DNA of 64,000 nt from contig JAGIQG010000020.1 in the NCBI GenBank assembly GCA_024679065.1, positions 8,990,001 through 9,054,000 of the forward strand, read 5' to 3'. Under the pieces are notes generated by a model. It did no database searches and was not told where the DNA came from. It saw only the letters and a list, made by a program, of their open reading frames with translations. This DNA comes from Sphyrna mokarran (Eukaryota). Shown one piece after another: positions 1,701 to 64,000 of this stretch (its first letter is position 1; the number at the start of each line of letters is the position of its first letter). The position numbers and the translations under genes are program-made.

Positions 1701-1783
1701 GAGAAAGATGAACAGAAGCCAAGTGTCTCACCTTCTGCTAACTCTTACAAATCTTAATACTGGTGTTCTGTCGTCTCCTTAAC

Positions 1784-2198
1784 ATGAACGGCCTGACATT
1801 AATATGGATACACACGTCGAGTTTCTGGCCAGTCTGGATGCTGAGTGTCGCTGAAGGGATTTCCATTGACCAGAGGCCAGATGTTGTCGATGTGGCCGAA
1901 GGAGGTGCAGCAAATTTGACCTGTATGTATTCTGCTGCTGAAATTAAAGACTTTGAAATCAACTGGATGCACCAACCAAATGGAACTCATCAGTCCTATA
2001 TTTTTTACATGGGCAATTACAAGGTAAATCGACCAATTCAAGTGGTACATACAAATGGCCAAAATCAGAATGTATCCCAGATATTCATGACCCAACTTCA
2101 GGTGGGAGACGGCGGCGTATATTATTGTGAATTCAGAATTCTCAGTGCAGTGTCCAATGAAACAATAAAGGGGAGTGGGAGCAGATTGATATTTAAAG
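1784..2198 (+). CDS. Ig receptor exon: signal peptide + V-set domain
   Basis: Canonical Cys-Trp-Cys with Cys residues 68 codons apart, DxGxYYC, GxG motif, four N-glycosylation sequons (NLT, NGT, NVS, NET); phase-1 donor AAAG|GTAGGT at 2198/2199. Confidence 0.9.
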
Positions 2199-3992
2199 GT
2201 AGGTCCTGCTTTCTATATTTCAAAATGTATTTGTTTTTAATTCTTATTTTATGGAACATCGGATGCTACGGCAAGGCCAGTATTTGTTGCCAATTCCTAA
2301 TCGCCCTTGAACTAAGTGGATTGCTAGGCCATTGCAGAGGGCAGCAACATTGCTGTGAGTCTGGGGTGATCAGGTCAGCAAGGTAAATATTGTTCCCTAA
2401 AGGACATCAGTGAACCAAGTCTTGCTTTCATAGGAATCGATAATAGTTTCATGGTCACCATTACTGAGACTAGCTGATCAATCCATCACATCACTACATT
2501 CATGACCAAGTCCTTATTAGTGATGTGATGGTAACATACAAACCAGAAGCAGGAGTAAGCCATTTGGCCATTCGAGCCTATTCCGCCATTCATTTTGATC
2601 ATGGCTGGTCATTAAATTCCATGTCCTGATCCCATCATCCCTCCATATCCCTTGACCCTTTTACCTCCACTGGGCTGAGTTCCATGATCTGTGTCAGGAG
2701 CCAGTGATCAGGGGTGCAATTGGTGAAGCGCACTGTCTGGGGAGGGCGAATGGTCAGCAGTGGTGTTTCTGGTCAGGATCCAATCTCAGTGCCTCTTGCT
2801 GGAAAGTGGTGTGGTGTAAGGTATGACGCCAGTAGCGGGTTGGAGCAAGGATCAGGAAGGATTGCCAGTGCAAGAATTGAGAATGGGCGCTTGGTGTCTA
2901 TTGAACTTTCATCCAGCAACAAACAAGACGTGCAGGGGAAGAATGAGAGAAAGTGGGTATAAAATATGGAAATGCTCAACATGCAACTAGTCTCAGTGAA
3001 TACACATGGACAATCTGACTCCAATTGCACTTCAATAAAAGAATACTGCGGCTGCTGGAAGTCTGGATGTGTTCAAAATGCAATTGGTTTCAGTGAATAA
3101 ATGTAGATAATTTGCATCCAATTGTAGTTTAATGAAAGCAAGATACTGCGGAAATATGAGCACAAAGTGCTGAAAAAAATCATCAGGTCAGGCTGCATTT
3201 GTGGAGAGAGAAACAGGGTTGGACAGTTGTTTCAAATTCGTCTAACTCTTTTTCAGAGTCATATGAACTCTTCTATTCCTCCCTCCTCAGGTGCCCCCAG
3301 GCCTGTTGAGTTTCACCAGCATTTGCTGTTTTATTTACAATTTTACTTCACATTGATTCAGTCATTGGCAGAGATGTGGTTAGTGTGTCAGCAGCATTTC
3401 AGCCTAAACACATGTTATAATATTTATTACAGACCCGTCCATCATTTCCACATCAGGTTGTAAGTGGTTAGATAGTACCTTTCCAACAATTATTCTGTTA
3501 CTCGCAATTTCATTCCGAAATCAGGATTTGCACCACCTCCTCGGCCTGTGAGGGAATTGTGACTGTCAAAACAGCTGGAACTTCATCCTAAGTTTGGAGA
3601 GTAACGGTTTTGGCGACAAGTTGTCATCCACACTAATAGATGTGAGATTCTCATTGATATCGCCAGAAGAAGTTATGATCTCTAAACTAAGACTTAAAAT
3701 CTTAAGATGGAGAAGAATGTCGAATCCATCATGTGTAAATATGTGGTTGTAAACAGGCAGAACTATATTTAATCCATAATTTTGTTGATATTTTCAGAAC
3801 ACAATTTGGAATGTTAGGTTTTACTGGGGTCATTGTTGACCTTATGCTATTTATTTGATTGTTGTTCTATTTTCAGGGGAAACAAGTCTTATATAAGCAA
3901 TTAGTGTCACAAACCAATAAGAATTAACGTGTCCGTTAAATTATCTCACTAAAATCCTGCCCCGTAGTCTTCATTTCTACCTCCCCTCTCCC

Positions 3993-9749: not shown

Positions 9750-11975
9750 GAATCATAGAGGTTTACAGTATGGAAACAGGCCCTTCGGCCTAACTTGTTC
9801 ATGTCGCCCTTTTTTTAAACCCCTAAGCTAATCCCAATTGCCCACATTTGGCCCATGTCCCTCTATACCCATCTTACCCATGTAACTATCTAAATGCTTT
9901 TTAAATGATAAAAGGGCTGGAATGGTTACAAAGAACAAAGAACAACACAGCACGGGAAACAGACCCTTCGGCCCAACGAGCCTGTGCCGCCATCCTAACG
10001 TCTTAATGCCATATAGGGACCAAAAGAGGGACAATTTGTTACCCAATCAGCCTAAGAGCACATTTTGGGGATGTGGGAGGAAACCGGAGCACCCGGAGAA
10101 AACCCACGCAACCACAGGGAGAACGCGCTAACTCCTGCAGACACAGGCCCAAATCCATGTGTCTGCACAGCAACAGCAATAGTCTCTGAGCTGTAATGTT
10201 GCCCATCTGATGGTCCAGTTTAAGCATACACTAACGACGTGAAGCACTAGGCCACTCCTGAAGCAACATCCAAGAGCAGCCCTCGCATGACCTACCGAAT
10301 GCATGCACCTTGTTGGTCAACAAGGTGGATCGAATAGCCTGTGGAAACAAATAAGATATTTAGACAGTCCTGTTATATCCCTCTATCTGCAGACCGCTCA
10401 TGTGGCTGTCCAAGAGACCCTTAAACAACCCTAGCATGCCTGCTCCCACCACCTTACTCGGTAGCGCATTCCACACCCCTACTACCCTTTGTGTGAAAAA
10501 CTGCCCTCTAATATTCGTCTTATACATAGCCCCCCTCATCCTAAGGCCATGACCCCTCGTTCTATCCATTTCTAATGGTGGAAAAAGCTTACCACCATTT
10601 ACTCTATCTATACCCCTCACAATCTTATATACCTCTAATAGACCCCTTCTCTATGAGAGGACATGCTCATGAGAGTTGCTATAAGAGGACACAGGTTTAA
10701 GGTGCTATGGAGCAAGTGCAGAAGAGATATCAGGAGTAAGTTTTTCACTCAGAGGATGGTGGATGAGTGGAATCGGCTGCCGTCAGTAGTGGTGGGGGCA
10801 AATTTGATAGGGTCTTTTAAGAGACTTCTGAATGAGTACATGGAATTTAATAGAATTGAGGGTTATAGATAAGCCTAGTAGGAATGGATATAATCGGTGC
10901 AAATTGTGGGTGAAGGGCCTGTTTGTGCTGTAGTTTTTCTGTGTTCTATGTTCTGTGTTTTACCTCTGCAACTTGTCCCAGACACTCACCACCCTCTGTG
11001 TGAAAAAATTGCCCCTCTGGACACTTTTGCATCTCTCCCTTCTCACCTTAAACCTATGCCCTCTAGTTTTAGGCTCCCTTACATTTGGGAAAAGATATTG
11101 ACTATCTACTTATCTACGCCAATCATTATTTTATAGACCTCTATAAGGTCACCCCTCAGCCGCCTACGCTCCAGAGAAAAAAGTCCCAGTCTATTGAGCC
11201 TCTCCTTATAACTCAATCCATCAAATCTCGGTAACATCCTAATAAATCTTTTCTGCACTCTTTCTAGTTTAATAATATCATTTCTATAAGAGAGTGACAA
11301 GAATCGTACACAATATTCCCAAGTGTGGCCTTACCAATGACTTGTACAACTTTCCAGCTCCTGTATTCAATATTCTGACTGATGAAACCAAGCATGCTTA
11401 ATGACTTCTTCACCACTCTGTCCACCTGTGACTTCACTTTCAAGGAACTATGAACATATGCCCCTAAATCCCTTTGCTCTGTAACTGTCCCCAGTGCCTA
11501 CCATTAACTGAGCAAGTCCTGCTCTGGTTCAATCTACCAAAACATATCATCTTGCATTTGTCTAAATTAAACTCCATTTGCCATTCATCAGCCTAATGGC
11601 CCAATTGATCAAGATCTCATTGCAATTGGAGATAACTTTCTTCACTGTCCACTACATCACCAATTCTGGTGTCATCTGCAAACTTACTAATCATGTCCCC
11701 TATATTCTCATCCAAATTTTTATAAATGACAAATAACAGTGGGCCCAACACTGATCCCTGAGACACACCATTGGTCACAGGCCTCCAGTTTGAAAAACAA
11801 CTCTCTACAATCACCCTTTTTTTGTATCCACTTAGATACCTCACCCTGGATCCTATGAGATTTGACCTTATGCAACAACCTACCATGCGATACTTTGTCA
11901 AAGTCCAACTAGACAACATCAACTACACTGTCTTTAGCTATCTTCTTGTCTACCCCTTCAAAAAACTCAACAAAA
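9750..11975 (-). mobile_element. Nested CR1 cluster: older minus-strand CR1 (9750-9920 + 10960-11975) interrupted by a minus CR1 (9927-10640) and a plus CR1 fragment (10660-10960)
   Basis: RT peptide fragments in ORFs 10360-10620, 10663-10872, 11106-11300, 11617-11922; host element sequence resumes across the inserts. Confidence 0.8.
9927..10640 (-). mobile_element. CR1 3' end with extended 3'UTR (acceptor + hairpins + V-SINE core), copy 1
   Basis: ORF2 end ...IEGYNRTV* at 10360, followed by an about 430-nt UTR shared with four other copies. Confidence 0.85.
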
Positions 11976-14064: not shown

Positions 14065-15440
14065 TTGTGAGGGAGAGAGACAGTGTGAGGGTGAAAGAGT
14101 GTGAGGGAGAGAGAATCTGAAGGAGAAAGCGTGAGAGAGTCAGAATGAAGGGGATTGTGAGCGTGAGAAAGGAAGTGTGTGGGGGAGAAAGTGTGTGAGG
14201 GAGAATGATTAGATTAGATTAGATTAGAGCAACACAGCACGGGAAACAGGCCCTTCGGCCCAACAAGCCCGCGCCGCCGTCATAACTATGTAGTAACAAT
14301 TCCATTATCCTATTCTAATTTTAAGTTATTCCTAATATGGAAGAGTCTCAATGTAGGGACAATTTGTTTCCCAATCAGCCTAAGAGCGAATTTTTTGGGA
14401 TGTGGGAGGAAACCGGAGCGCCCGGAGAAAACCCACGCAACCACGGGGAGAACGCGCAAACTCCCGCAGACACCGGCCCAATTCCAAGTGTCTGCACAGC
14501 TACAGCGATAGTCACTGAGCTGTCATGGTGCCCTTCAGATGGTCCAGATAAAGCACTCATTTACGACATGAAGCACCAGGCAACCCATGAATCAACATCC
14601 AACAGCTGTCCTCGCACAACCTGCCGAATGCATGCTCCTTGTTGGTCAAGTATGGACCGAATTACCTGTGGGAAAAAAAGCCATAGTTAAACAGTCCTAC
14701 TATATCCCTCTATCTGCATAATGAGTGTGAGGAAGAGACAGTGTGTGGTGTGAGTGTGAGGGAGAGAAAATGTGAGGGAGAGTGTGAGGAAGAGAGAGTG
14801 TGAGGGACAAAGTGTATAAGAGGTGGGCGAAAGTGAGTGAGGGTGTGAGGGACAGAGTGTGTAAAGGAGAGAGAGCATGGAGTGTGAGTGTGAGGGAGAG
14901 ACAATGTGAGGGATAGTGTGAGGAAGGGAGAGTGTAAGGGAGAGAGTGTGTAAGGAGTGGGAGACAGTGAGTGAGGGTGTGAGGGAAAGAAAGTGTGAGG
15001 GAGAGAGTGTGTTAAGGGTGTGAGGAAGAGAGTGAGAGGAAGAGAGAGTGTGAGGAAGAGAGAGTGTGAAGAGTGGGAGAGTGTGAGGGAGAGTGTGTAT
15101 GAACGATGGGAGAGTGTGGGGGAGAGAGAATGTGTGGGGTTGTGTGTGAAGAAGTGAGAGTATGAAGGAGAGAATGTGTGAGGGGTGTGTGTGTGAGGGG
15201 CAGAGAATGAGAGTGAGAGAGAGTGTGAGGGAAAGAGTGTGAGGAAGAGAGAGTGTGAAGGAGAGAATGTGTGAGGGGTGGCAGAGTGTGAGGGAGAGAT
15301 AGTGTGAGGGGTGTGAGTGTGAGGGACAGAGAATGAGAGGGAGGGACAGAGAGTGTGAGGGAGTTAAAAATTGATGAGGGCAGGGTGTGTGTGGTTTAGA
15401 AATTGTGAGAGGGAGGAGAGAGAGAGTGTGTGTAGTTGGG
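14065..15440. repeat. (GA/GT)-rich imperfect simple repeat (GTGTGAGGGAGAGA-like), interrupted by a CR1 3' end
   Basis: Low-complexity purine-rich tandem repeat seen directly. Confidence 0.9.
14206..14718 (-). mobile_element. CR1 3' end with extended 3'UTR, copy 2, (TCTAA)n tail
   Basis: MQIEGYSRTV* at 14687, shared UTR module, GATTA repeats at about 14207-14226. Confidence 0.85.
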
Positions 15441-20221: not shown

Positions 20222-20822
20222 TAAGAAATACTTAGATGGGCACATGAACAGAATGGGAATGGAGGGGTATAGAAAACTGATTTAAAATAGGGATCATGAG
20301 CCTTCGGAGTCCCTGGGAAGTGTGTAAATAGATGATGATATTGATGTACTTGTTTTTACCCTACAGATGCTTTGGTCCACCTTGTTGTCTAACGAGGGGC
20401 ATACACGTGATGGGTCGTGAGAGGGCTGCTCTTAGATTTTTTTTTCGAGAGTATCATAGTGCTTCACGTCATTAGTGCGTGCTTGACCTGGACCATTTGA
20501 TGGGCAACACGACAGCTCAGTGACTATCGCTGTGCTGTGCAGATACATGGATTTGGGCCTGTGTCTGTGGGAGTTTGCGCATTCTCCCCGTTCTTGCGTG
20601 GGTTTTCTCCGGGTGCTCCGGTTTCCTCCCACATCCCAAAGATGTGCTCTTAGGCTAATTGGCAAAACAAATTCTCCCTAAATTGTCTCAAATTTGGTTT
20701 TTAATCCATAGATCTACAAACATGGACAGGGATCACAGGTAGAGGTGGGAACATTGGGGTGGCGGCGCGGGCTCGTTGGTACGAAGGGCCTGTTTCGCAT
20801 GCTGTTTTGTTCTTTGTTCTAA
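20222..20822 (+). mobile_element. CR1 3' end with extended 3'UTR, copy 3
   Basis: KKYLDGHMNRMGMEGYRKLI* then shared UTR module; nearly identical to the copy at 25083-25680. Confidence 0.88.
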
Positions 20823-25082: not shown

Positions 25083-26575
25083 TCAAAGATCAAAGAACAA
25101 AACAGCATGGGAAACAGGCCCTTCAGCCCAATGAGCCCGCGCCACCACCCCGATGTTCCCACCTCTATCCGTGATCCCTGTTCATGTTTATAGATCTATG
25201 GATCAAAAACCAAATTTGAGACAATTTAGGGAGAATTTATTTTGCCAATTAGCCTAAGACACATCTTTGGGATGTGGGAGGAAACTGGAGTGCCCGGAGA
25301 AAACCCATGCAAGCACGGGGAGAATGCACAAACTCCCACAGACACAGGCCCAAATCCATGTATCTGCACAGCACAGCGATGGTCACTGAGTTGTTGTGTT
25401 GCCCATCAAATGGTCCGGGTCAAGCGTACACTAACGATGTGAAGCACTAGGATACTCTCGAAAAAGATCCAAGAGCAGTCCTCTCACGACCCATCGCGTG
25501 TATGCCCCTCGTTAGACAACAAGATGGACCAAAGCACCTGTAGGATAAAAACAAGTACATCAATATCATCATCTATTTACACACTTCCCAGGGACTCCCA
25601 AGGCTCATGATCCCTATTTTAAATCAGTTTTCTATACCCCTCCATTCCCATTCTGTTCATGTGCCCATCTAAGTATTTCTTAAATAACTCCAGAGTGCCT
25701 GCCTCCACCACTTTACTTGGCAGCGCATTCCATACCTCCATCACCCTCTGTGTGAAAAAACTCCCTCTAGCATCCAAATTATACCTTACCCCCCTCACCC
25801 TAAGCCCGTGACCCCTCGTGCTATTCAAGTCCATTCTAGGAAAAAGCTTAACCCTGTTTACTCTATCTATACCCCTCATAATCTTGTACACCTCTATTAG
25901 ATCTCTTCTAAGTCTACGTCTTTCTAAGGAAAGCAGTCCCAATTTGCCTAACCTCTCCTCGTAACTCAGACCTTCCATACCAGGCAGCATCCTGGTAAAC
26001 CTCCTCTGCACTCTCTCCAGAGTCTCGACGTCCTTCCGGTAGTAAGGCGACCAGAACTGGACACAGTATTCCAAATGAGGTCTAACCAACATTTTATACA
26101 ACTGCAACATTAAAGGTCACCTCTTGGACTCTATACCCCTTTCTATAAAGGCTAACATACTATATGCTTTCTTCACAACCTTCTCCACTTGCTCTGCCAC
26201 CTTCAGAGACTTGTTCACCTGAACCCCCAGGTCCCTCTGCATTTCTATACTCTTAATAGGTCTACCCTTTATCATATACCTCCCCCCTACATTCTTTCTC
26301 CCGAAATGCATCACCTCACATTTACCAGGATTGAATTCCATCTGCCCAAGCTACCAGTCTATCTATGTCCTGCTGCATCACCTGACAACGCTCTTCACTA
26401 TCCGCAAGTCCAGCCATCTTTGTATCATCTGCAAACATGCTGATCACTCCACTTACTCCCTCTTCCAAATCATTTATACATATTACAAATAGAAGAGGTC
26501 CCAGTACTGAGCCCTGCGGCACACCGCTAGTGACCGACCTCCAGCTAGAAAAACACCCTTTCACTATTACTATCT
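25083..26575 (-). mobile_element. CR1 LINE (RT 3' half with frameshifts) with extended 3'UTR, copy 4
   Basis: ORFs 26322-26564, 26117-26341, 25619-26110; UTR 25618-25083. Confidence 0.92.
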
Positions 26576-31274: not shown

Positions 31275-33890
31275 TCATAGAGTCATAGAGGTTTACAACA
31301 TGGAAACAGGCCCTTTGGCCCAACTTGTCCATGCCACCCTTTTTTTTTAAACCCCTAAGTTAATCCAATTGCCCGCATTTGGCCCATATCCCTCTCGACC
31401 CATCTTACTCATGTAGCTAATTAAATGGTTTTTAAAAGACAACATTGTACCCGCCTCTATTACTACCTCTGACAGTTTATTCCAGACACTTATCATCCTC
31501 TGTGTGAAAAAACTGCCCCTCTGGACACTTTTGTATCTCTCCTCTCTCAACTTAATCCTATACCCTCTAGTTTTAGGCTACCTTTGGGAAACATAATGAC
31601 TATCTAGCTGATCTGGCTATTTTATAGACCTCTATGAGATCACCCCTCAGCCTCCTACACTCCAGAGAAAAAAGTCCCATTTGTCCAGCCTCTCTTTATA
31701 ACCCAAACAATCAAGTACCGGGAGCATCCTAGTAAATTTTTTATGCACTTTTTCTAGTTTAATAATGTTCTTTCTGTAATACTGTGTCACATTTCCTGTA
31801 TTCAATGTTCTGACTGATGAAACTAAGCATGCCAAATGCCTTCCTCACCACGTTGTCTGTCTGTAACTCTACTTTCAAAGAGCTATGAACATGTACCCCT
31901 AGGTCACTTTGTTCATTAAATCTCCCTAACGCTTTACCATTAACTGAGTAAGTCCTGTCCTGGTTCAATCTACCAATATGCATCATCTCGCATTTGGCTA
32001 AATTAAACTCCATCTGCCATTCATCAGCCCACTGACCCACTTGATCAAGATCTCATTGCAATTGGAAATAACTTTCTTCACTGTCCACTATGCCACCAAT
32101 CATAGTGTCATCTGCAAACTTATTAACCATGTTTGCTATATTCTCATCCAAATCATTAATATAAATGACAAACAACAGTGGAGCCAGCACTGATCCCTGA
32201 GGCAGACCACTGGTCATCGGCCTCCAGTTTGAAAAACAACTCTCTACAACCACCCTCTGGCATCTATCAAGAAGCCAATTTTGTATCCATCTGGCTACCT
32301 CACCCTGGATTTCATGGGATTTTACCTTATAGATCAAAGAACAAAACAGCATGGGAAACTGGCCCTTCAGCCCAACGAGCCCACGTGCACCACCTTGATG
32401 TTCTCACTTCTACCCGTGATCCCCGTCTATGTTTATAGATCTATGCATTGAAACCAAATCTGAGACAATTTAGGGAGAATTTGTTCTGCCAATCAGCCTA
32501 AGGGCACATCTTTGGGATGTGGGAGGAAACCGGAGAAAACCCATGCAAGCATGGGGAGAATGTGCAAACCCCACAGACACAGTCCCAAATCCATGTATCT
32601 GCACAGCACAGCGATAGTCACTGAGCTGTCGTGTTGTCCATCAAATGGTCCAGGTCAAGCGTACACTAACAACGTGAAGCATTAGGATATTCTCGAAAAT
32701 GTGATTACAATCAGATCAACCATTATCTTATTAAATAATTCAAAGTCTGAGTGGCCTATCCTGCGTCTAGTTCTTATGTTCACCTAATCTTCTCTCATTT
32801 GTACATTATTCCTATCCTCAAACCTGCCTCCACCTCAATAACATTCAGTTCCTATCCACCTGCATTTCAGGCAGAAAAGGACTAACCTGAGGTGGTGATG
32901 GGCTTTCTTAACTATAGCATTGGCTTGGAGAAACCAAGACAGGTTGTTGGTGATCTGGGCACCAAGAAACTTGAAGCTCTCAACTCTCTCAAGAGGTTAG
33001 TGAAATCTGGCACGTCCACTACAACTTTTCCCAATTTTCACTGATGCACCATAGAAAGTATCCCTATCTGGTTGCATCACAGCTTGGTATGGCTCCTACT
33101 CTGACCAAGACTGCAAGAAACTACAAAGGGTTATGAATGTAGCCCAGTGCATCATGCGAACCAGACCCCACCCCCATCCATTGACCCCATCTACACTTCC
33201 AGCTGCCAGCATAATCAAGGATCCCATGACCCCAGAAACACACTCTTTGATAAGAAAAAAGATACAAAAATCTGAAAATATGTACCAATAGACTCAAGAA
33301 AGTCTTCCCTGCTGTATCCAACTTTTGAATTGTCCTAGCATATATTAAGCTGATCTTTTGCTTAATGCTACCTGTAACTGCAACACTATATTCTACACTC
33401 TATCGTTTTTTTTTTCCCAATGCATATCATGACTGGTACCTTTTGTCTGTATAGACATTTCACTGCCTGGTACGTATAGCAATCAAAGAAATCAAGTTCT
33501 TACCGTCCCTAGTGCCTTACGCAATAACCTACCATGTGATATCTTGTCAAAGGCCTTGCTAAAGTCAATGTAGACAACATCAACTTCACTGCCCTCATCT
33601 ACCTTCTTGGTTACCCTTTCAAAAAACTCAAAACAAATTTGTGAGACATGATTTTCCATTCACAAAGCCATGCTATCTGTCCCTAATCAGTCCTTGCAAC
33701 TCTAAATGCCTGTAGATCGTGTCTCTCAAAATATGTTCCATTCACCCACCACAAATGTAAGGCTCACTGGCCTGTAGTTCCCAGGCTTTTCCCTGCAGCC
33801 CTTTTTAAACAAAGGCACAACATTAGCCACCCTCCAATCTTCAGTCACCTCATCCACAGCTATCAATGATTCAAATATCTTGGCCTCTTT
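31275..33890 (-). mobile_element. Minus-strand CR1 (31275-32330, 33500-33890) interrupted by extended-UTR CR1 copy 5 (32331-32700) and a Rex1/Babar fragment (32870-33495)
   Basis: RT peptides in ORFs 31647-32352; shared UTR module; TIESILSGCITAWYG-like Rex peptide. Confidence 0.75.
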
Positions 33891-63015: not shown

Positions 63016-63269
63016 TAGTCATGATGTAAAGATGCCGGCGTTGGATTGGGGTGGTAAGAACTCAGTAAGAATTTAGCAACACCAATTATTAGTCCAACCG
63101 ATTTATTTGATAGTAAATCCGCGAGCTTTCAACACTCTTGTATCTTCCTCAGGCAAGTGCAGTGTTCACTGCACTTGCCTGAGGAAGACACAAGAGTGTT
63201 GAAAGCTCGCGGATTTACTATCAAATAAATCGGTTGGACTAATAATTGGTGTTGCTAAATTCTTACTGA
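63016..63269. mobile_element. Penelope-like inverted terminal-repeat insertion with 13-bp TSD
   Basis: Arms 63062-63164 and 63167-63269 (1 mismatch); ATTGTTCCCACTG at 63003-63015 and 63270-63282. Confidence 0.85.
63174..63213 (+). ncRNA. Minimal type I hammerhead ribozyme motif (mirror copy on - at about 63118-63157)
   Basis: TTGC-CTGAGGA-A-GACAC(AAGA)GTGTT-GAAA-GC-TC-GCGG: CUGANGA, stem II, GAAA, palindromic AGCT stem III, UC cleavage site. Confidence 0.75.
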
Positions 63270-64000
63270 ATTGTTCCCACTGGCAGTGATAGCAATGAGG
63301 CACTGCTGGCCTCCTGATCGGTCAGCAGCTGTGTGTGTAGGACTTCATCTGCTGAGGATTCAAATTCATATAAGGTCTAACAGTAGCCATTCAAGAGCTC
63401 GAAGAGCACTTAGTAACATCTGTCTTTCTAGGGGTTCCACTTAGTTCACTAAGAGGTGGGTAAGACTCCTAAATTCAGCTCTATATTTGACATGCCAAAA
63501 TTGTTAAAAGATTTATTTCTGTGGTTTACATACACAAATAGGAATGATGTCTTTATTGCAAGATTTATGCAATACCTCCACACATCACAAAATTATGCAG
63601 CAGGGATATTTAACATTGTTAACTGCCTTTGTAGGTGCATGAAGCATGCAGTCAGATGCTAAATAGAGGATTGGTGGACCATACTGTTTTGATCAATAAA
63701 CACTATCAATAAGTACTGACTGCTAATTAAAGCCTTCTTGAGTTAACATGAATCAAAGTAAAATTACTTGACTGGTGGATCTGAATTTTACTGACCAACC
63801 CGCAGCTTTAATTGATTAGCGATGGGCCTGTTGGTGCATAGGGTGAGGAAGGACAATTTGATAAGTGTTTTGTATTACATTCTTACTTTACATGAAACAA
63901 AGTCTACACGTTTTAGATAACAGAATTTTTCACTGTTAAAAGAAATCAATTAACATGATTAAAATTAAATTATAAAAGAGTTACAAATTAAAAATTCAGA

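Follow-up and report, generated by a model that had tools for sequence, protein, structure and literature searches.

The 3' UTR of CR1 retrotransposons usually consists of just a short tail. In other retroelements, RNA export elements are described for MusD (MTE), MPMV/SRV (CTE), IAP and the 3' part of LINE-1, the last of which is drawn past the final ORF and ahead of the 3' end (PMC4588558, Fig. 1 legend). In the stringent LINEs that have been studied (ZfL2-1/ZfL2-2), ORF2p binds a stem-loop in the tail (PMC4176376). HE1, a V-SINE, is the partner of the CR1-type LINE HER1 in sharks and rays (PMC3747384), and the function of SINE central domains is stated as an open question (PMC4824008). The canonical vertebrate CR1 has an esterase domain in ORF1, and a 2026 CR1 survey speaks of the UTR once and never of splicing (PMC13343379). 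No description of the CR1 3' UTR presented below was found in the open literature, although a repeat catalogue may already contain a consensus of the family. The RNA fold located in this chimeric 3' UTR is real, probably selected and apparently undescribed.

The window, that is, the whole 64,000-nt stretch of DNA analysed here, comes from the 2.77-Gb genome of Sphyrna mokarran, which is rich in tRNA-derived SINEs and in LINEs of the CR1 type. Positions 9927-10650 of the minus strand belong to a 5'-truncated CR1 bearing a module with copies near 10.1, 14.4, 20.4 and 25.3 kb, and a fifth copy (32.6 kb) is itself 5'-truncated. A sequence-only reading had proposed that three hairpins, A, B and C, form one covarying and selected RNA of about 200 nt in which no reading frame is conserved. 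The hairpin strings quoted there are all present in the copies named. The frame-0 lengths of 35, 34, 17 and 35 codons and a 2-nt frameshift in family B confirmed the lack of a conserved frame, and on the same grounds the module was rejected as a coding exon. In element sense, the ORF2 stop is followed by a spacer ending in a pyrimidine tract and CAG/G, 134 nt that contain hairpins A and B, a degenerate SINE head bearing hairpin C, a SINE central domain, a variable linker and the CR1 tail. The features are as follows.

10360-10650, minus strand: 3' remnant of CR1 ORF2 in a 5'-truncated family A copy, with 10360-10362 as the stop codon
10339-10359, minus strand: pyrimidine tract and CAG, a candidate 3' splice acceptor with 10338 as the first base of the exon
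10212-10331, minus strand: predicted three-way junction of 120 nt; P1, 10326-10331 with 10212-10217; P2 (hairpin A), 10308-10325; P3, 10223-10307, with hairpin B (10249-10282) as its cap
10167-10204, minus strand: degenerate tRNA-related SINE head (A-box region) with its own predicted hairpin; aligns with free SINE heads in the window, and this part of the profile matches free SINEs in the random sample
10137-10166, minus strand: hairpin C, occupying the place of the SINE B box in comparison with free SINEs
10027-10136, minus strand: SINE central domain (V-domain-like), strongly conserved among subfamilies and common to free SINEs
9927-9985, minus strand: CR1 3' tail with a hairpin (9956-9974) and short T-rich repeats, common to sister CR1s and free SINEs
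14454-14672, minus strand: copy 2, family B
20360-20580, plus strand: copy 3, family C
25326-25544, minus strand: copy 4, family C
32562-32698, minus strand: copy 5, whose 5' truncation falls inside the module

The full-length relative L193 encodes an ORF2 of 989 aa with the reverse transcriptase (RVT_1, E 2e-32) and AP endonuclease (Exo_endo_phos, E 1e-9) that characterise CR1 LINEs. Its ORF1 matches Lipase_GDSL_2 with E 2.6e-7 and 31.7 bits, slightly below the cut-off of 32.9, and was counted as an esterase. The 3' hairpin, the short terminal repeats and the 5' truncation are those of a CR1 LINE as well. A profile search for the module in 80 stretches of 10 kb, placed at round coordinates, returned 13 copies, which extrapolates to about 45,000 copies per genome. 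In total, 218 distinct whole-module copies were collected, most of them by similarity search and thus biased towards the queries. Four subfamilies, A-D, are mutually 76-87% identical, and the first 137 copies diverge from their own majority by 1.3-5.8%. A module copy at L379:2373-2830 lies between families C and D and probably represents a fifth subfamily. Some family B copies carry a tandem repeat of the initial 160 nt of their 5' UTR (L193:4666-4821 and seven other full-length loci). Two family C copies in the window (20222-20820 and 25087-25682) are inverted relative to each other, 92-96% alike and about 4.3 kb apart, and could give long dsRNA if co-transcribed. Elsewhere in the window, positions 63051-63280 form a near-perfect inverted repeat (arms of 114 nt, 96% complementary, spacer of 2 nt), and an open frame with an Ig V-set domain (1742-2386, plus strand, E 1e-13) is probably an exon of a host immune-type gene.

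Hairpin C is SINE-derived and hairpins A and B are not, therefore the proposed 200 nt consist of two parts of different origin. The idea of one hairpin module holds for A and B as arms of a larger predicted fold, whose closing helix P1 and long P3 had been missed, and fails for C, which belongs to the captured SINE head. Free SINEs contain nothing that corresponds to the A/B junction. A covariance model built from 18 copies and run over 864 kb recovered the 18 known copies together with weak SINE-head matches, and no distant homolog of the junction. The idea that the module start derives from a CR1 tail in inverted orientation was also considered and rejected, as its best score of 26 was not significant against control maxima of 28 and 30.

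The downstream part resembles the HE1/HER1 pair (PMC3747384, PMC4824008) in its tRNA-related head, central domain and CR1-common tail, and free SINEs of this build occur in the window. In contrast to HE1, the SINE is here fixed inside the 3' UTR of an autonomous LINE, its B box is lost and its central domain is under strong constraint. The captured SINE and the free SINEs are presumably HE1-like, and the central segment is what we take to be the 80-bp V-domain of an HE1-type V-SINE. A V-SINE possesses an intact Pol III B box and a tail common with its partner CR1; the tail is present, whereas the B-box motif was found in 0/218 module copies as compared with three of the four free SINE heads examined. 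ARAGORN reported no tRNA gene in the window. Despite the loss of the B box, the central domain accumulated only 0.13 steps per site, compared with 0.54 at fourfold sites of ORF2 (p = 1e-6). The CR1 tail showed 0 steps in 45 columns across the four subfamilies. LINE-derived parts of SINE bodies (PMC5786205) likewise reflect a mosaic exchange between LINE UTRs and SINEs, as far as that source describes it, but its direction, from LINE to SINE, is reversed here, where a whole SINE now resides in a LINE UTR.

In a random sample of 46 ORF2 ends, the tail hairpin is reached after 14-55 nt in 24, the whole block is present in 10, and a tail match is absent from 12. The block was gained by one CR1 lineage, in which the 3' UTR was lengthened by 350-480 nt comprising the acceptor motif, the predicted junction and the captured SINE. 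It would have been acquired when transcription read through into a SINE lying downstream, or when the template was switched onto one, and the CR1-type tail of this SINE would then have become the new 3' end.

Copy 1 alone folds with a z-score of -1.62 in sense (14/200 shuffles were as good) and -1.32 in antisense, so a single copy proves nothing. For the upstream 134 nt, the majority sequences of the subfamilies gave z-scores of -4.8, -3.2, -3.6 and -1.6 in sense, the weakest being that of family D, and of +0.1, -0.3, -2.0 and -0.9 in antisense. One three-way junction was predicted from all four majorities, with P1 (6 bp) closing P2 and P3, an 85-nt interrupted stem. Among the majorities, the stems changed at 0.28 per site, the loops at 0.51 and fourfold ORF2 sites at 0.54; paired sites differed from unpaired ones with p = 0.04 and from fourfold sites with p = 0.006. 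Changes acquired after insertion were equal in stems and loops (0.033 vs 0.036), which indicates that the contrast between them arose in the source elements. When the same substitutions were placed randomly in a neutral simulation, 0/500 runs kept the fold as well, on each of four measures. The module scored z -6.2 in sense and -1.1 in antisense, as compared with -2.9 to +1.6 for the ORF2 controls (22 values, from 11 windows on both strands, with four gap-rich windows skipped); most control windows had z below 0, and the starting sequence was reconstructed from the same four rows. The SINE window reached -4.8 in sense and -5.1 in antisense, with no strand preference. Moreover, non-CpG variants broke a pair in 5/26 cases if present in at least five copies and in 79/176 cases if rare (p = 0.018). 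P1 and outer P3, which the sequence-only reading had not picked, contained 6 broken cells vs 11.6 in simulation (p = 0.037), and single helices were each non-significant (p 0.06-0.22).

These comparisons of aligned copies, with four independent source lineages behind the fold tests, make it highly probable that the fold is under selection. The notion of a selected structured RNA is thereby sustained for the upstream 134 nt and not for the 200 nt as one unit. The claim of covariation was an overstatement. Pairing is indeed kept in the sense strand, mostly by one-sided G-U exchange, but two-sided change occurred in 3/38 pairs with a covariation term of -0.01 kcal/mol (8 copies). In 18 copies, 7/66 pairs showed two-sided change vs 5.6 after shuffling, and 120/500 shuffles were as high. 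On a four-leaf tree, no compensatory pair arose on a single branch in the upstream module, in which 11 one-sided changes kept pairing, 5 restored it, 8 broke it and 1 was an alignment artefact.

The block could also be a neutral passenger, i.e., a captured host intron end with a structured exon and a SINE, lodged between ORF2 and the tail, whose fold was inherited and not selected. Such an origin would fit the neutral rate of the loops, the total of 49 changes per 134 nt, which is like that of ORF2 windows, and the fact that hairpin A can be lost: in family B it has 4 bp in a shifted register, and a common deletion removed it from 2/72 B copies. The region was, moreover, chosen for its hairpins, and the lineages are few. 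However, neutrality does not account for the deficit of changes in stems or for the rarity of pair-breaking among widely held variants. The folding energy held through 48 substitutions, from -50.8 kcal/mol at the start to values between -49.9 and -57.1 kcal/mol in the descendants, and in the copies compared deletions gather on either side of the block and spare its interior. The passenger origin is therefore regarded as improbable.

A selected fold in the 3' UTR of source elements, less than 400 nt from the tail, might assist the tail hairpin in RNP assembly or reverse transcription, through ORF1p/ORF2p binding or template handling, and RT recognition had been among the functions originally suggested. 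The point of likeness to the tail of stringent LINEs (PMC4176376) is a structured RNA that lies in the 3' UTR of a CR1-group element and is maintained by selection for retrotransposition. There, however, ORF2p binds the tail stem-loop, and such a role maps here to the separate invariant hairpin at 9956-9974, with the module lying 250-400 nt upstream. A LINE tail stem-loop is, furthermore, located at the extreme 3' end and common to all mobilised relatives, and the module is absent from the 24 short-UTR CR1 ends and from free SINEs. Sister CR1s have the same tail hairpin and lack the block, which makes the block unlikely as an RT-recognition signal. The local fold is more stable by 6-11 kcal/mol than a long-range pairing between the module start and the tail, and the acceptor motif would be left unexplained. 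A function in RNP assembly or reverse transcription is thus considered slightly less probable still than the passenger origin.

The three-way junction topology and the size of P3, an interrupted stem of about 85 nt comparable to a pri-miRNA, could also suggest that a self-cleaving ribozyme or a Microprocessor substrate processes the transcript. An Rfam search with three copies, however, gave nothing near threshold (best 17.4 bits, gathering 50), and hammerhead and hairpin-ribozyme cores occurred in 0/218 copies. This agrees with the earlier statement that no hammerhead or HDV core is recognisable, and gives no support to the catalytic role offered beside it. The junction strands vary at a neutral rate, and cleavage at this place would leave the ORFs without the tail on which reverse transcription depends, so processing of this kind appears very improbable. 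Other core motifs were found in sense in few of the 218 copies (SECIS 3, IRE 2, histone stem-loop 0, ENE 0), and the module does not qualify as any of these.

Seven nucleotides ahead of the fold lies the polypyrimidine-CAG/G motif, which had been overlooked. Its AG is kept in 214/218 copies and the pyrimidine fraction of the tract is 0.84-0.89, so that in sequence it has both the pyrimidine tract and the YAG/G of a 3' splice site. The letters of the tract changed at 0.95 steps per site vs 0.17 at positions -5 to +1, the alignment of the tract being uncertain. The spacer between the ORF2 stop and the acceptor measures about 22 nt in families A and B, 85 nt in C and about 150 nt in D, and neither of the two separate deletions that shortened it crossed the pyrimidine tract. 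Loose ends of contigs in other runs display further variants of the tract. Contigs of runs X2 and X3 contain a CR1 with the same ORF2 end and a different pyrimidine-rich, AG-ending sequence past the stop, which suggests another family with its own acceptor-like motif.

One RNA-seq contig (116 nt, depth 4.5) joins foreign letters to the first base of the module; the RNA runs derive from other or unidentified organisms, their RNA nature is partly guessed, and contig depth says nothing of expression. The 26 foreign letters have 35 matches in one genomic cluster, 15 of them exact, and 0 in the reversed control. They represent the end of a TRIM coiled-coil exon, and GTGAG comes next in 30/30 paralogs examined. 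A TRIM donor joined exactly to the exact acceptor base is what splicing predicts, with the caveat of a 6-nt microhomology (AG-GTGA) on both sides, and the junction may instead have arisen by template switch or truncated insertion. No matching intronic source copy was found 1.5-2.5 kb downstream in 30 of the 35 TRIM paralogs. The cluster (G000:C1548:102.6-110.8 Mb, L371-L400) comprises at least 35 near-identical RING-B-box-coiled-coil paralogs, one of which has a sense module-bearing CR1 0.83 kb past the exon donor. This copy, at L379, belongs to a different subfamily and was rejected as the source of the contig.

Donor-like sites are present upstream. Among 30 family B copies, most have a GTGAGT in the 5' UTR, with a pyrimidine-rich AG about 54 nt further on, which means that the full-length element RNA has splice sites to pass unspliced. 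A consensus GTAAGT follows the ORF1 stop in 2/3 family A-type copies (L184, L187), and the same site reads GTAACA in 42 family B copies. On inspection of the 5' UTRs of L067 and L193, two GTAAGT were also noted in the 5' UTR of an unrelated CR1. The fold might therefore regulate the splicing of a real subgenomic RNA, in which a donor in the 5' UTR or past ORF1 is joined to the acceptor, removing both ORFs or ORF2 only (ORF1-only mRNA). Copia-type LTR elements make Gag mRNA by comparable splicing. The position of the acceptor, 22 nt past the ORF2 stop in families A and B, the two kinds of donor and the TRIM-module contig, suggestive of a working acceptor, all point in this direction. On the other hand, spliced retrocopies were found in 0/30 copies with a 5' UTR, in 0/30 family B copies from an exon query, in 0/167 copies with an intact exon start (an overlapping set, biased to spacer-holding queries) and in 0/20 family D copies from an exon query (20 of 40 matches). 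The acceptor was the end of 0/15 joints among those listed for four runs, and the GTAACA of family B speaks against a donor past ORF1. An apparent joint of 5' UTR to module at L245 proved to be two elements across an assembly gap. The element resembles SpIREs, the spliced L1 retrocopies (PMC5860796), as a LINE with internal donor and acceptor sites, and differs from them in that no spliced retrocopy was found here and in that the acceptor lies past the ORF2 stop and is conserved across subfamilies. Regulation of a subgenomic RNA is accordingly judged unlikely.

The anatomy, the chimeric 3' half, the slower change of stems than of loops in the source lineages, the folding in sense and the retention of the acceptor as the spacer shrank from about 150 through 85 to 22 nt are established. 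The explanation favoured for them, still tentatively, is that the junction may act in cis as a post-transcriptional element that raises the amount of full-length element RNA through nuclear export, 3'-end processing or stability. The acceptor would recruit 3' splice-site factors and set up a terminal exon, and the fold behind it would bind a host factor or damp the acceptor, which would allow the unspliced RNA to survive. More full-length RNA could then be processed and exported. We infer this mechanism from the position of the block, selection, the preference for one strand, the fact that sister CR1s do without the block, and the upstream donor-like sites. As 24 of the 46 ORF2 ends lack the block, CR1 mobility as such does not require it, in keeping with an accessory enhancer. 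The likeness to retroelement export elements, as far as these are presented in PMC4588558, consists in a multi-stem cis RNA (a predicted fold in the present case) placed past the final ORF, ahead of the 3' end, in a transcript that has to stay unspliced. In contrast to these elements, the CR1 module has no sequence or Rfam match and no CTE-type loop motif (0/218 copies in sense), is about 120 nt long, opens 7 nt past an acceptor motif and is hosted by a CR1 LINE, and its export role is putative.

Summarizing, the lineage with the module accounts for about one fifth of the CR1 3' ends sampled (10/46), and the predicted fold together with the acceptor motif has been kept through at least four subfamilies. 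It thus offers a compact and mutable candidate for the study of RNA export and splicing handling in a vertebrate non-LTR element. As the SINE central domain sits here inside an autonomous element devoid of a Pol III B box, its function becomes testable by simple assays of retrotransposition. Host transcripts could, moreover, be truncated by the tens of thousands of copies that bear the acceptor, as the TRIM contig hints. A bolder reading, which seems rather unlikely but conceivable, is that an autonomous CR1 made itself a selected terminal exon, with a working acceptor behind ORF2, a three-way RNA element of a new class for the control of splicing or export, and a Pol III-dead SINE with a constrained central domain. 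If this were true, a spliced subgenomic RNA would be made, host exons would be trapped at tens of thousands of loci, and SINE central domains would prove to be active as RNA without any need for Pol III.
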